Shown here piece by piece: positions 56,270 to 63,064 of a stretch of 64,000 nt of DNA. The stretch lies in NCBI GenBank assembly GCA_000004985.1, contig GG738867.1; one strand, 5' to 3'. Source of the DNA: Naegleria gruberi. Its lineage: Eukaryota. A program made the translations under genes and the position numbers. The notes beneath the pieces were generated by a model that had not been told where the DNA came from, did not search any database, and saw only the letters and a program-made list of their open reading frames with translations. The first letter of the stretch is position 1. Each line of letters starts with the position of its first letter.

Positions 56270-58153
56270 TTAATCTTGTGGAGCAACAAGTCCATTTTCC
56301 TTTGGTTTCAACAAGTATTCCAAAATTGAAGGGGTAATTTCTTCCAACAAGTCAAAGGCCTTTTGCTTATCCATGTCATTGGTTTCAACGTACCATTTAA
56401 GCTTTGGTTCAGTACCACTGTTTCTGATGGTTGCAGAAGTACCATTTTCAAAAGTGAAAGTAATCATTTGAGAAGTTGGAGTGGCAGGAAGAAGTGGCTT
56501 GTTATCCTTTTGGGCAGAATCATAGTCTTTAGTCAAATCTCTGAGAGAAGCAATCTTGAAGTGCTTTGAACTATCTCTAATACTTGGAATGAAGGTTGGA
56601 TATCCACCATTTTCAATCTTTCTGAGTTCTTCCATAACCTTGTGCAACAAGTCAGTGGATGGTGTGAAGAAGTAACGAGTCTTCATGGCAAAGAAACCAT
56701 ACTTCTTATAGATATTTTCAATTTGTTCACTCAAACGTTTAACAACACCTCCCTTGTAGTGACTGTGGGCCATTTCAGCAAAAACTGAAGCAGCTCTAAC
56801 ACCATCCTTATCCAAACTACAGTCACCAACCAAGAATCCAATTTCAACTTCATAACCTAACAAGAAAGTGTATCCATCCTTGATATATTGATCAGCTCTG
56901 TTACCAATCCATTTGAAACCAGTGAGAGTTTCATCAAACTTGAAACCTTCATGAGCAGCCATAGCTCTCAAAATCTTTGAACTGACGGTACTGGCAATCA
57001 TGACACACTTGGCGTAGTCTTCGTTTGGATGAGAAGTCTTATATTGAGTCCAAACCCAATCAGCCAACAACATGGCAATTTCGTTACCATTGAAAATTCT
57101 CCAAGATCCATCAACTTGTCTTTCAGCAACAGCCAATCTGTCAGCATCTGGATCGTTAGCCAAAATGAGAATAGCACCTTCCTTTTCACACTTGTCCATG
57201 GCAAGTTTGAGAGCACCTTTACCTTCCTCAGGATTTGGATATTTTACAGTGGTAAATTCTGGATCAGCTTCAATTTGCTCTTCAACAGGAATGCATTTTG
57301 GTAAACCATACAAATCAATAGCTCTATATGTGAAAGGAGTACCAACACCATGCATAGCAGTATATACAATTTTCTCATCGGAAATAACTGGCTTACCATT
57401 GCTGTAATTATATTTACGAATGGCTTCAAAATATTCATCAGCTTGAGTTTTGGTTGGATCTTGCAACAAGTGAGACCATGGAGACAAATCAATAACTTGT
57501 TCTTCATCACCTCCATTTCCGTCTGTCTTTAATTGTTTTCTAACTTCTTCCCAAATTGATAAATTTTGCATGATAGCAGCAGAAATGTATTCATCTTGTG
57601 GAGGAATAATTTGACAACCATTTTCCCAATATAATTTATAACCATTATCTTGCTTTGGGTTGTGTGATGCAGTAACCATGACACCAGCAATGCATCTCTC
57701 TCCACTATTACTTCTATTAATATTACTGACAGCAAAAGGAACAAATGGTGTGCATACCATTGTTCTAAACAAATGTACAGTGTATCCCTTGGAGAGGAAA
57801 ACACCAGCAGTCAAGTTTGCATATTGTTTAGAATGATGTCTGCCATCATATCCGACAACTACAGAAACTTTGCTCCTATCACTAACATCTTTTGTACATT
57901 CTTCAATGTATTTACAAACTCCTTGAGATGTTTGCAAAATAATCAATTCATTCATGCATGAAAATCCAGCAGCCATCAAACTTCTCAAGCCAGCTGTACC
58001 AAATTCAATACGCTTACATAATCTCTTTTCCAATTCAGCTACATTTCCCTGTTGGACAAGGTTTTGAATATCCTTTCTAGTCACTTCAAAAGGATCAAGC
58101 TCCAACCATTGATCGACGAGTTGTTGAATATGTTGAGGAATTGTTTGGGACAT
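56270..58153 (-). CDS. phosphoglucomutase-2-like alpha-D-phosphohexomutase (PGM2/phosphopentomutase family), 627 aa, single exon
   Basis: Active-site serine loop TASHNPKQDNGYKLYWENG. Also GTAGLRSLMAAGFSCMNELIILQTSQG, the metal-binding loop NDPDADRLAVAE, and sugar-binding GYEVEIGF. Confidence 0.85.
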   Translation of the reverse strand: MSQTIPQHIQQLVDQWLELDPFEVTRKDIQNLVQQGNVAELEKRLCKRIEFGTAGLRSLMAAGFSCMNELIILQTSQGVCKYIEECTKDVSDRSKVSVVVGYDGRHHSKQYANLTAGVFLSKGYTVHLFRTMVCTPFVPFAVSNINRSNSGERCIAGVMVTASHNPKQDNGYKLYWENGCQIIPPQDEYISAAIMQNLSIWEEVRKQLKTDGNGGDEEQVIDLSPWSHLLQDPTKTQADEYFEAIRKYNYSNGKPVISDEKIVYTAMHGVGTPFTYRAIDLYGLPKCIPVEEQIEADPEFTTVKYPNPEEGKGALKLAMDKCEKEGAILILANDPDADRLAVAERQVDGSWRIFNGNEIAMLLADWVWTQYKTSHPNEDYAKCVMIASTVSSKILRAMAAHEGFKFDETLTGFKWIGNRADQYIKDGYTFLLGYEVEIGFLVGDCSLDKDGVRAASVFAEMAHSHYKGGVVKRLSEQIENIYKKYGFFAMKTRYFFTPSTDLLHKVMEELRKIENGGYPTFIPSIRDSSKHFKIASLRDLTKDYDSAQKDNKPLLPATPTSQMITFTFENGTSATIRNSGTEPKLKWYVETNDMDKQKAFDLLEEITPSILEYLLKPKENGLVAPQD

Positions 58154-58359
58154 TTTTTTGATTTTTTTTTTAAAGATTTAATGAAGGCTATTTTTGATTC
58201 CTCCGAAAATGGCTTTATCATCATCATGGATGATAATTAAACGATTTTTATATTGACAAACGTTGATCTGAAATATTAAGCATGCTTATTGAGTGTTGGT
58301 TTTGTAAAGAGTTTTGTAAATAGATTTAATCTATTTAAATCTTTAAATTTTAAAAAAAA

Positions 58360-60913
58360 ATGGAAAGAGTTTCGCCTCATGTTCATCTCTTGGCAAATAT
58401 TTGGGAAAATGAAAATTGTAAACTTCCTATCATTATTGAAAAACATAAAGAAGAAGATTTAAAATCATCGCCATTATCTTCTAAAAGAATTGATTATTTA
58501 ATTCCGAATCAGAAACTATTGATCAATTCAAATATTTATTCAATTGATTTATTAAGTAATGATGCAAATTGTGATGATAATAATAATACATCTCCAATTG
58601 ATGATGGAATTAATCATCATGATGGGAATGAATTAGAAGAAATTACTTGTCTTGATCGATTGTTTGTGTTGGAAGAGGTTTTATCGAGGGAGGAATGTCA
58701 AGATTTGATCAATGTGACTAATGAATTAGGTTATCGTTCGATTGATAGAGAATATTCGAAAGAGTATAGAAATAGTGAGAGAGTAGTGGTAACTAGTAAG
58801 AAAGTAGCAGAAATATTGTGGAATAGGATAGTGTAGGTTTTACAGTTTGGTTCATTTACTGATAAATTCGAATAGACCATTGATGAAGAAGGAAGATATT
58901 GCTAATGTGAAACCATACGGATTTGATAATAACGGGAAATGGATTCCAATAGAATTATCAGAATGTTTGAGATTTAACAGATATAAGGAAGGAAATTTCT
59001 TTAAACCTCACATGGATTCTCACTTTGTCAGAAATGACAATGAGAGAAGCATATTTACCATTCTTATTTATTTAGATGATTCTCCTTACGGTACTACCTT
59101 TTGGAAAAAGATTCCAGACGAAACAAATGAGGAACTTGCCAGCACCAAAATGAATTTCAAGAAATTATTAACAGTTCAACCAAAAGCTGGATCCATAGCA
59201 ATATTTAATCATGATATTTATCACTCTGGAGATTTTGTAAATGAAGGGTACAAATATGTTGTCAGAACTGAAATGATTTTCAAGAGAATAGATCCAGAAA
59301 GTGTATATAGACAAGATTATAGAGAAACAGCAGAATTTCAAAAAGTGAAACAATTAGTGGACGAAAGCAATCAATTAGAGAAGGAAGGAAATTTAAAGCT
59401 TTCCACCCAAAAATATATTCAAGCCCATGAATTACAAACTACAAAAGCCAACAGTATCCAAAAGGTTAACATTTCTAACAGGATTGGGCAATTACCAGAA
59501 GAAATGTTCCTTCTCATATTTTCATTTATGAAAACAGAGGAAATTTCAAACTCTTTCATCAAACTTGATAGAAACCTGAACTCTATCACAAGACACTCAA
59601 AGGTTTGGAAGGAAAGATATTGTCAAAAGTGGTCAGACAAACCCAAAGTCCCTCTCAACAAAGCAAATGGATTTAAACGAGATTATTACTATCAAATGGA
59701 TGATGACGAAATAGTTGAAGAAGGAACAATCTACTCAATGGAAAATGCAATCACCATTCAACATGAACAAACACTGGGAGATTGGTATCATGCCTTTGCA
59801 ATGAGATCTAATCAAGAAAAATTTATGGAAGTTGTATTGCTAGATTTTGTTGGAGGCAATTATAGATATGGACTTTCAAGCCAATCATTGTTTTACGTTT
59901 CGCCTGCCTCTTGTGGAATACCGAATCATCCTCATTTCTCTCTTGTGGGTTATGATTATCAGAGTATCCTTTGTGGTGATAGGTATTTTGTATCTGCTTT
60001 CCAGTGTGATGATCTTCCACTAATGGAAAGGAATGGGCAAATATTAGACATGCGTAATTTTAAAGAAATGATTACACAGCTTTACAGAGATGATCTGAAA
60101 AAGAGTATGGCTACTCCTCTATTGATTTCCATTCCAGTTGTGTGGACAGATAAACAATTATCAGTAGTTAGTACTGAACTGGTAAGTTATTTATTAATAC
60201 TGGATTAAACAGTTTATTTAAAGATTAACATGGGATTGGATGTAATATTTATTGATGAGGCAAAACTCAGGTCATTTTACTATCAGAAACCGAATTGTTT
60301 AATCATAAAATTGACAGAAAATGGAATTTATTTCATTCCAGTTAAGGAAAATGAGATGGTTAGAAAATATTATCATTTAAAAGATATGAAAAATCAAACC
60401 AGCTACCCATACCCATCAATTCTAAAAATCGCTTTCATTCCATCTGTTGACATAATTGACGAAACAGTCTTGAATGTTGAACCAATAGATATTGGAACAC
60501 ATTATAACCCAAAGATAGTTGGGAAAGAAGAAAGAGTCAAATTAGGAACAGAAATATTATTACAGGTAACAAATGCAATAGAAGAATATAAGAATTGTAT
60601 AGAAAATTGGAAAAGCAGAAATGTGACTGATAATATAATAGTTGTTGGAGAGTTTGCTCATTTGGAAAATATGAAATCCGTAGTTATTGGCCTACTCAGC
60701 AAAAATTTTCCAAATAGTTCCATTACGTATCAAGAAAATCACTTAGACAAGACGGTCAAAATTATTAACGAAAACAGTAGAAAGATGGGATATAGAGGAG
60801 GTTCTTTTGATGTTGTGGGTGGAGCAAAGATAATTTGCAGTTTGAGTAACTTTAGGGAGGATTATTATGAAAAACGTTCTAAAAAGAAAGAAAAGCGATG
60901 CACAATTGCCTAA
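58360..60913 (+). CDS. fusion protein: prolyl-4-hydroxylase-like 2OG-Fe(II) oxygenase, TPR-like segment, F-box, and a divergent actin-related protein (Arp) domain; 3 exons, about 823 aa
   Basis: Exons are 58360-58832 (donor GT|gtaggt), 58876-60181 and 60224-60913, with introns of 43 and 42 nt. P4Hc: LDRLFVLEEVLSREECQDLI, KPHMDSH (HxD), AIFNHDIYHSG (His), KYVVRTEMIF (Arg). F-box: LPEEMFLLIFSFMKTEEISNSFIKLDRNLNSITRHSKVWKERY. Actin fold: VVLLDFVGGNYRYGLSSQSLFYVSPAS (actin [27 protein letters not shown]), TPLLISIPVVWTDKQLSVVSTELV ([24 protein letters not shown]), NIIVVGEFAHLENMKSVVIGLL ([22 protein letters not shown]), and VKIINENSRKMGYRGGSFDVVGGAKIICSLSNFREDYYEK ([38 protein letters not shown]). 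No stop separates the F-box from the Arp N-terminus (single ORF 58847-60208). Confidence 0.6.
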
Positions 60914-60916
60914 AAT

Positions 60917-61597
60917 TTAAACATGAATGACAGAGTCTACATTTTTATCATGTTTCTCGGTTGGAATGATGAATTTAGTCTCTTCACTATCGATTAATTG
61001 TTTCTCAATTAATTGGTGTTTGTAGTTATCTGAGAGTTGGAAGTTTTCGTCTATAAATTGGCATGAAAAACAAATTCCAACAAGATTAGTTTCAAATTCA
61101 GTCCTACTTTTCAATTCATCCATTTTATGGAAGAAGCTATCATAATAACCCTTTCCTCTTCCTAATCTTCTATTTGAATAATCAAATGCAAGTCCTGGAA
61201 CTACCACTAATAATTTACTATCTCCATTCAAAGAATTCAACAAATCTTTTCTATGAGATAAGCTTTCAATTGGAGGTTCCAATAATTTATATTTGGCATT
61301 GTGAATTTTAAATGTTGAAAAATCCAATTCATCCTTTAAAGAAACCATCTTCATAACATCTCCCATTACAATCGGAATAAACAATTGTTTTTCTTTTTTG
61401 AGAGCATCATGAATAATATCCATTGTATCAACTTCATTACCACTTTGCATTGGAATATAACAACAAACATGAGTACATTGTGAATAAAATTCACTATTTA
61501 AAATTCGTTGTGTTATGCTTTTGGATTCCGATTGGATTTGTTCTGGTGTTAAAAGGGAGAGTTGGCGTTTAAAGTATGAACGGAAGATATTTTTCAT
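60917..61597 (-). CDS. 5-formyltetrahydrofolate cyclo-ligase (MTHFS), 226 aa
   Basis: [28 protein letters not shown] matches MTHFS [29 protein letters not shown]. The N-terminal [23 protein letters not shown] matches KRSLRGELKQRLRAMSAEERLRQSRVLSQKV. Confidence 0.8.
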   Translation of the reverse strand: [226 protein letters not shown]

Positions 61598-61675: not shown

Positions 61676-63064
61676 TTAGCATGATTCTATTGAAGGATAG
61701 CATACACAGAATGCTGCACTGTCCATTAATAACATGGACTCACCATCACTATTCCATTTAAAGTTTTGTACATTAAAGCTGGCACTTGGAATATCAACAC
61801 ATGAGCATCCTTCTCTTGACCAAATATAAATTTTTCCATTTCCTGTACAAATGGCCAATCTAACATGAACTGGATCCCATTGTGCATACCTAATTGGTTG
61901 TGTTTGTAATATAAGTGAACATAATGAAAGTTTGCTAGTTTCCCAAATCCATAATGCATTTGGCATGCTATCATTCCTAGTAAAGAAATATTTTGAATCA
62001 CAACTCCAATCCATCAATCCAACGCCTTCCTGAGGATTAGCCTTCTTATAATCGACAGCCTTAACAGTTTTCAAATTGACAGGCAGCTCAGCAATAACAT
62101 CTAATAGGTTAAATTATTTTGCCAAATTGAAAAACTTACATCTTGTTTTGCTGTGAGATGCAGACTTGTTTGTTCCAACAAATTCGACTTCTTGGAAAAC
62201 TACTGGATTATTTGGATGAGTTTCTATTGATACAGGTGTACCGTGATCGTATGTTGCTGTCAATTTCCATGTTAGATGATTGAGTATTCTAGCCTTTTGA
62301 TCGAAACTGCCAATAGACAACAACTGTCCATTTGGTGACCATTTAACGCTTTTGACACCCAATAAATCGTTATATGCAGAGTAGTGAGCAATCTCTGATC
62401 CTGCTGGCGAATATATTGTGACTGAGTATTCGATTTGATGATCCCATACTACAAGGAATCTACCATCAGGAGACCATTTCAAATCAGCAAGGTTCTTTGT
62501 CCTCACAGGAAAATGTTTAACTAATTCCCAAGTTTCTGTAACAATTATTGAAATGTAATCTTTACAATCTCTTCTTTCAGCAAGTGCCATATACTTTCCT
62601 CCATTTGGAGTAAAATCTATTCCTTTAGAAGTGAATTTAGGGTATTTGATATGTGCAACGTGTCCCGAAAATTCATCATTATCAGTTAAGGAATTATTCT
62701 TCAATATCGACCAAATTGTAATTCTTAATTGGAAATCAGCAGTAACAAGAACATGTCTTGAATCTGGAGAGAATCTTGCATAGCTTACTCCTGCTGGACC
62801 TTCCTCAATCTTACATTTCCAAGTGTTATCACTAATACTCCAAACCTCAACACAAGCTCTTTTATATTGAGCACAAAGAATAAATTCATTATCAGCACTC
62901 CATTCAATTTGAGAAATTACATCCGAACAAGTATAAATTCTCAACACTTGTAAAGACTCTACATCTTTAATCACTAGCCTATATCCTGATGAACTGGCAA
63001 TGTATTTTCCATTTGGCGAAAATTTACAAATACCAGAATATTTAAATACTTCACTAAAATCCAT
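61676..63064 (-). CDS. WRAP73 / WDR8 WD40-repeat protein homolog, 2 exons
   Basis: Exon 1 is 62140-63064 (donor AGA T|gtaagt). A 39-nt intron spans 62101-62139. Exon 2 is 61676-62100. MDFSEVFKYSGICKFSPNGKYIASSSGYRLVIKDVESLQVLRIYTCSDVISQIEWSADNEFILCAQYKRACVEVWS aligns with human WRAP73 [77 protein letters not shown]. Confidence 0.8.

Follow-up and report, generated by a model that had tools for sequence, protein, structure and literature searches.

A P4H-type oxygenase, an F-box and an actin fold in one predicted gene of Naegleria gruberi, member of a widespread eukaryotic family

Near the end of a 64,000-nucleotide stretch of Naegleria gruberi DNA (contig GG738867.1, assembly GCA_000004985.1; the whole stretch is henceforth the window), one gene encodes a prolyl 4-hydroxylase-type (P4H-type) 2-oxoglutarate (2OG)/Fe(II) oxygenase, an F-box and an actin or actin-related protein (Arp) fold within a single predicted polypeptide. 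The gene is the locus NAEGRDRAFT_57989 (XP_002677299.1, EFC44555.1, UniProt D2VES1; 100% identity), annotated as a 'predicted protein', in a gene-dense window with a G+C content of 31.8%. An earlier note, made from the letters of this DNA alone, had described the fusion and could match it to no characterised protein; the observation as a whole is confirmed and its interpretation is partly supported. The architecture is not a one-off but, as far as sequence comparison can tell, the dominant form of an ancient, widespread and unstudied eukaryotic family, dictyostelids included.

The three open reading frames (ORFs) from which the gene is built exist on the plus strand as the earlier note had given them (58360-58836, 58847-60208 with 453 aa, and 60230-60913), and the second is continuous throughout. 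Spliced together, they give a single gene of three exons with an 822-aa product, a frame of 822 codons without a stop, organized as follows.

58360..58832, plus strand: exon 1, aa 1-157 plus 2 nt of codon 158; N-terminal extension and first part of the oxygenase domain
58833..58875, plus strand: intron 1, 43 nt, GTAGGT...ATAG; without it the frame is restored and the junction reads as the conserved W.RI.P(F/L)
58876..60181, plus strand: exon 2, aa 158-593, inside the ORF 58847-60208; encodes the core of the oxygenase, the helical hairpin, the F-box, the linker and the beginning of the actin fold
60182..60223, plus strand: intron 2, 42 nt, GTAAGT...AAAG, with an in-frame TAA inside
60224..60913, plus strand: exon 3, aa 594-822 plus the TAA stop; remainder of the actin fold

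The junction between exons 2 and 3 (STEL/INMGLD) matches XP_002677299.1 exactly, at 100% identity, and exon 2 is identical too. Exon 2 alone runs without interruption from the core of the oxygenase through the F-box into the beginning of the actin fold, which excludes two adjacent genes as a reading of these parts. The public model (XP_002677299.1/D2VES1) has 662 aa, begins at Met161 of the 822-aa model and lacks exon 1. By homology exon 1 is real, because heterolobosean paralogues align with the protein from its first residues and without a gap across the junction (RIV/PLMKKED against RIVPFLKKSD), a tblastn search with one N. gruberi paralogue matches 58405-58845 and 58877-60859, and the exon holds oxygenase residues (EC and EY..YR...R) that vary little or not at all across the wider family. 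Judged by these alignments the public annotation of NAEGRDRAFT_57989 is N-terminally truncated, and the 822-aa model corrects it. Introns of about 40 nt are normal in this stretch, since that of a WD40 gene close by (61676-63064) measures 39 nt (62100-62138, minus strand, GTAAGT..TAG). The N-terminal extension, aa 1-92 (58360-58635), is kept among heterolobosean paralogues, with the patterns MER..H...W and RR.D.L.PG..I....TV.LL. A second tandem copy of the fusion gene was searched for within the window and not found.

The first domain is the oxygenase, whose features are these.

58636..59305, plus strand: P4H-type 2OG/Fe(II) oxygenase domain, aa 93-301, spanning intron 1; identified by Pfam PF13640 and by a family profile against the PDB
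59009..59017, plus strand: HxD metal ligands H203-M-D205, with H and D invariant in 92 family sequences
59207..59266, plus strand: NHDIYH...KYVVR, with the distal His H274 (59222-59224), K284 (59252-59254) and R288

The Pfam family PF13640 (2OG-FeII_Oxy_3) matched aa 190-287 of the 822-aa protein with 34.3 bits against a cut-off of 27. H274 is invariant in the 92 family sequences as well as in a 32-sequence alignment of the domain; K284, 10 residues past it, is kept in at least 90% of the former and is invariant in the latter, and R288 is likewise conserved. K284 and the distal His align with the Lys and His of the B. anthracis P4H. The catalytic residues named in the earlier note (HMD...H...R) thus hold as far as the HxD...H triad, which is intact, but for the binding of 2OG the predicted basic residue is K284 and not an Arg.

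To place the enzyme among its relatives, the 32-sequence domain profile was compared with all PDB chains at E<=10. It matched the P4Hs of B. anthracis (1.6e-11), Chlamydomonas (P4H-1, 2e-9) and PBCV-1 (6e-7) and the human transmembrane P4H (P4H-TM, 1.2e-6), and weakly a PKHD hydroxylase, vaccinia C10 and P3H1, while no PHD/EGLN or PhyA chain appeared among all matches to this threshold. Because the profile matches are P4Hs and include neither PHD nor PhyA, we call the domain collagen-type rather than PhyA-type; in its sequence it is a catalytically intact-looking relative of the collagen-type P4Hs. No JmjC family gave a Pfam match in the N. gruberi protein or in 62 relatives, and inspection of the N-terminus by eye revealed no obvious signal peptide. 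The domain also has viral counterparts. A giant-virus protein (Edafosvirus AYV77919.1) is a single-domain homologue, the poxvirus C4/C10 family (PF03336) matched weakly in 10 of 62 family members, and the match to vaccinia C10 (8ag3) had E=0.007. A link between viruses and hosts is possible for this P4H subfamily. A word-indexed search with the oxygenase-domain alignment yielded nameless fragments only.

Behind the oxygenase come two helical elements, which we located with the help of a structure predicted by AlphaFold2 (AF2). The model covers the public 662-aa protein, so that 160 residues at the start of the oxygenase region are missing from it, and was obtained from the 92-sequence family alignment with a predicted local distance difference test (pLDDT) of 85.6 and a predicted template-modelling score (pTM) of 0.80; an earlier run from a 7-sequence alignment (pLDDT 46.6) was discarded.

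59330..59437, plus strand: two-helix hairpin between oxygenase and F-box, aa 310-345; AF2 helices 150-167 and 171-188 (662-aa numbering), with a conserved consensus
59492..59632, plus strand: F-box, aa 364-410, LPEEMFLLIFSFM...VWKERYCQKW; AF2 helices 200-249

The F-box that the earlier note had called canonical is clear at the level of the family, but by its Pfam score the N. gruberi copy is not canonical. The motif passes Pfam in five of seven close relatives (best 1.2e-6), and among the 62 long family members F-box-like was matched in 45 (best 3.8e-15) and F-box in 33. A family profile of this region, compared with the PDB, matched FBXL5 (3.5e-4), FBXW21, Cdc4 (7e-4), KDM2B, FBXL2 and cyclin F; most of its matches, including every best one, were F-box chains. 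The predicted structure has the helical bundle expected of an F-box. A conserved helix with the motif DWYxxF then precedes the actin fold, which has the following features.

59780..60859, plus strand: actin/Arp-fold domain, aa 460-805, spanning intron 2
59831..59878, plus strand: phosphate-1 region VVLLDFVGGNYRYGLS; D11 retained, K18 replaced by R
60296..60343, plus strand: degenerate phosphate-2 region CLIIKLTENGIYFIPV (actin GIVMDSGDGVTHTVPI); D154 replaced by K, G156 by T, D157 by E
60632..60682, plus strand: degenerate adenosine motif NIIVVGEFAHLENMKSV; G302 replaced by E
60806-60859, plus strand: 'GG...SLS' stretch VVGGAKIICSLSNF / FDVVGGAKIICSLSNFRE, counterpart of actin 337-354, aligned by eye

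Pfam Actin (PF00022) gave no match for the N. gruberi copy. The actin fold is nevertheless supported by the relatives, six of the seven close ones (best 2.2e-17) and 30 of the 62 long members (best 9e-36) matching PF00022. Compared with the PDB, a profile of the C-terminal domain matched both actins and Arps, with E-values as low as 5.3e-13 and a span of actin residues ~8-332, and an iterated family profile scored 155 bits against residues 6-350 of a beta-actin sequence entered by hand. Such family profiles were needed, as a phmmer search of the whole protein against PDB sequences gave no match. When the AF2 model was compared with the PDB by Foldseek, actins were retrieved with E 5.4e-14 and a target TM of ~0.69 over ~385 columns, and the predicted fold has the four subdomains of eukaryotic-type actins. 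Its closest structural neighbours include the nuclear Arp4, Arp7 and BAF53 together with actin, and among the named classes (Arp1-Arp11) none stands out as the best match.

The Arp module announced by the earlier note is therefore present as a fold, but key residues of its nucleotide site have been lost in the N. gruberi copy. In place of the DSGDGV of actin, phosphate-2 has KLTENG; Q137 is replaced by E, and the adenosine motif reads VVGEFAHLEN against SGGTTMYPG in actin. The same erosion is seen across the family, from which the equivalents of Q137, D154, D157 and H161 are mostly gone: in 85 long members D154 is retained in 10 and Q137 in 6, against 49 for D11, 60 for G13 and 48 for K/R18. 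The motifs for nucleotide binding and hydrolysis are not intact, and the actin fold appears to be a pseudo-ATPase in character. With catalytic oxygenase residues invariant and nucleotide-site residues lost, selection seems to keep the hydroxylase active site and not the actin ATPase site. As for the 'GG...SLS' stretch, it is real, but it does not form the adenine pocket that the earlier note had read in it, the true adenosine motif being degenerate and located elsewhere. The program hmmalign mis-registers the stretch owing to an insertion, hence the alignment by eye; its counterpart in actin is a helix that we take to be the CONNECT-2 element of the Bork-Sander-Valencia motifs (1992).

How far the fusion extends was examined with a full-length profile: out of the 1.84 billion representative proteins searched, 259 scored at E<1e-30. 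With iterated family profiles the three-domain architecture was found in 102 of 158 sequences, in a fixed order (P4H-type 2OG/Fe(II) oxygenase, helical hairpin, F-box, linker helix, actin/Arp fold), and PF13640 was present in 62 of 62 long members. Members checked with Pfam come from the Heterolobosea (N. lovaniensis, with several paralogues, N. fowleri and Willaertia magna), from the chytrids Rhizophlyctis and Nowakowskiella and from the choanoflagellate Salpingoeca infusionum. They come also from the Amoebozoa, where the earlier note had advised looking for orthologues and where three-domain homologues are carried by dictyostelids (Tieghemostelium, Acytostelium, Cavenderia, Heterostelium, Polysphondylium and the Dictyostelium species D. 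purpureum, D. citrinum, D. firmibasis and D. discoideum) and by Physarum, Arcella and Dracoamoeba. Pyxidicula and the centrohelid Pterocystis were detected by the family profile only, and the centrohelid is probably a member of the three-domain family. Its conservation in Discoba, Amoebozoa and chytrids, in a choanoflagellate and probably also in a centrohelid makes it probable that the fusion is old and maintained by selection. In Physarum, Arcella, Dracoamoeba and Salpingoeca the complete three-domain ORFs come from transcriptome assemblies, so in these relatives the fusion sits on one mRNA.

Some members have other modules added or swapped in (ankyrin, rhodanese, FYVE, Macro, NADAR) and keep the P4H and F-box core, and in Dictyostelium cf. 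discoideum two copies are adjacent (ACTFIZ_002477 and ACTFIZ_002478). In a rough neighbour-joining tree the N. gruberi copy forms a long branch within a heterolobosean expansion; its identity is 37-41% with the nearest heterolobosean relatives and falls to ~32% with the most remote of the paralogues compared. Named members are labelled only 'hypothetical', 'F-box domain-containing' or 'Fe2OG dioxygenase domain-containing'. Full-text literature searches found no paper on the architecture or on the member accessions, in agreement with the earlier note, which could match it to no characterised protein. Neither the Dictyostelium actinome paper (PMC2441452) nor the Naegleria actin paper mentions an F-box or an oxygenase.

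What such a protein might do is suggested by its parts. We think it rather probable that it is an F-box protein docking on Skp1, that its hydroxylase is active and that its actin fold serves as a recognition module without catalysis. Recruitment to Skp1 through the F-box is plausible, and the F-box would dock the fusion protein on Skp1 and so probably into a Skp1-Cul1-F-box (SCF) ubiquitin ligase. The usual layout of a substrate receptor is an F-box, then a linker helix, then a C-terminal binding domain, and the actin fold would occupy the position of the receptor. Given the loss of catalytic residues, this fold is most likely a binding module, a non-catalytic binder perhaps of actin, of an actin-binding protein or of an Arp-containing complex. 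With O2, Fe(II) and 2OG, the oxygenase at the N-terminus would hydroxylate one of the proteins assembled there, either the bound target or a component of the ligase, and the modification or turnover of the target would then depend on the supply of oxygen and metabolites. The proposal would connect the sensing of oxygen or metabolites with ubiquitin ligases and the actin system, and this connection can be tested genetically because D. discoideum carries orthologues, such as the 781-aa protein ACTFIR_000488.

Several points weigh against this proposal. The F-box of the N. gruberi copy scores only E=0.12 with PF12937 (F-box-like; 12.6 bits against a cut-off of 24.3), and the copy appears to be a divergent, long-branch paralogue whose function may have drifted. 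Binding to Skp1, assembly with Cul1, catalysis and the choice of substrate are inferences for every member of the family. Having an F-box would not by itself prove a role as substrate receptor either, since the O2 phenotype of the Dictyostelium F-box protein JcdI is independent of its F-box (PMC9485057).

JcdI also inspires the alternative that survives best, although we consider it unlikely: a Skp1-bound enzyme that is not a ligase subunit, in which the F-box would stabilise or regulate the protein itself (as in KDM2B/PRC1.1 and JcdI), while the actin fold would localise the hydroxylase to actin filaments or to Arp-containing nuclear complexes, where actin or its partners would be hydroxylated directly. 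The order of F-box, linker helix and C-terminal binding domain, being that of substrate receptors, speaks against it, whereas the presence of nuclear Arp4, Arp7 and BAF53 beside actin among the top structural neighbours fits it. JcdI (Fbxo13) is an O2-dependent dioxygenase F-box protein, binds Skp1 and is conserved across protists; its O2-sensing phenotype needs the dioxygenase activity and not the F-box, which may set the level of its own protein (PMC9485057). PHD3 has been claimed to link prolyl hydroxylation to actin, by hydroxylating it (PMC4161513), but such non-HIF substrates have been disputed, and actin is one of a set that recombinant PHDs left unmodified (PMC6739866).

A bolder form of the proposed ligase role, which we regard as improbable, makes the family an ancient O2- and 2OG-gated E3 ligase for the actin cytoskeleton, whose pseudo-Arp would recognise actin or an actin regulator, the bound protein then being hydroxylated and passed to SCF to be ubiquitinated. 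If true, this would be the logic of 'PHD plus VHL' fused in one chain, predating the HIF system of animals and acting in amoeboid eukaryotes on motility rather than transcription.

Quite improbable, in our view, is that Skp1 itself serves as substrate to a hydroxylase tethered to it by the F-box, as the earlier note had suggested by analogy with PhyA. The F-box is a Skp1-binding motif, the catalytic residues of the oxygenase are intact, and a cytoplasmic P4H hydroxylates Skp1 in Dictyostelium and Toxoplasma (PMC9485057, PMC7864055 and PMC11570480). The analogy rests only on a shared superfamily, however, because the oxygenase groups with collagen-type P4Hs and shows no match to PHD or PhyA, even though PhyA enzymes are described as PHD homologues (PMC7864055). 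Since dictyostelids carry both the fusion family and PhyA, the two are not substitutes for each other; the strictly co-conserved actin fold would be left unexplained, and our literature search found no paper joining the Skp1 pathway with Naegleria.

Finally, that the gene is an artefact of two fused models or a decaying pseudogene paralogue is very improbable and we reject it, for although the N. gruberi copy is the most divergent member, the sole one of the seven close relatives without a Pfam Actin match, sub-threshold in its F-box and deprived of exon 1 in the public model, its exon 2 frame and its 822-codon spliced frame are unbroken, no catalytic residue of its oxygenase is lost, AF2 models every domain with confidence and the same fusion occurs in >100 proteins, single transcripts among them.

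The surroundings of the gene are compact, with the following neighbours.

56270-58153, minus strand: phosphoglucomutase-family gene
60917-61597, minus strand: 5-formyl-tetrahydrofolate cyclo-ligase gene

The start codons of the divergent phosphoglucomutase-family and fusion genes are 206 bp apart (58154-58359), and the two probably have a bidirectional promoter region in common. At the other end only 3 bp separate the stop codons of the fusion gene (60911-60913, plus strand) and of the convergent cyclo-ligase gene (60917-60919, minus strand), so the 3' untranslated regions of these two genes must overlap.

Among known systems, KDM2A and KDM2B (FBXL11 and FBXL10; JmjC, CXXC/PHD, F-box and leucine-rich repeats) likewise unite a 2OG/Fe(II) oxygenase and a Skp1-binding F-box in one polypeptide, and they too have a C-terminal protein-binding module behind the F-box. 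In the fusion protein, by contrast, the oxygenase is of the P4H type (PF13640) and not JmjC, the actin fold replaces the leucine-rich repeats, and there are no DNA- or chromatin-binding domains. JcdI/Fbxo13, related to JmjD6, is like the fusion a protist F-box protein with an oxygenase of its own, in its case an O2-dependent non-haem dioxygenase; in JcdI the F-box precedes the JmjC domain, whereas in the fusion the P4H-type oxygenase precedes the F-box and the Arp domain then follows.

For the oxygenase taken separately, the closest solved relatives are the collagen-type P4Hs (1.6e-11 to 1.2e-6), with which HxD...H and the Lys at +10 align. Those enzymes are free-standing or associated with membranes or the endoplasmic reticulum and act on proline-rich substrates, while the fusion protein has no apparent signal peptide. 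With PhyA and the PHDs (EGLN) the oxygenase has a superfamily and a Pfam clan in common; these enzymes are cytoplasmic, use O2 as a substrate and are linked to E3 ligases, PhyA through Skp1 and PHD through VHL. PhyA differs in being a single-domain protein that acts on Skp1 in trans, and dictyostelids have it in addition to the fusion family. Compared with Arp1-Arp11 and orphan Arps, the actin fold of the fusion fits no class, is degenerate at phosphate-2, Q137 and the adenosine motif, and always stands behind an F-box; it adds an overlooked class of the actin family to eukaryotic 'actinomes'. The fusion is an oxygenase F-box protein like KDM2A/B and JcdI, a resemblance that is functional and architectural only, and the joining of a P4H-type enzyme to an actin-fold module sets it apart from every known oxygenase F-box protein.

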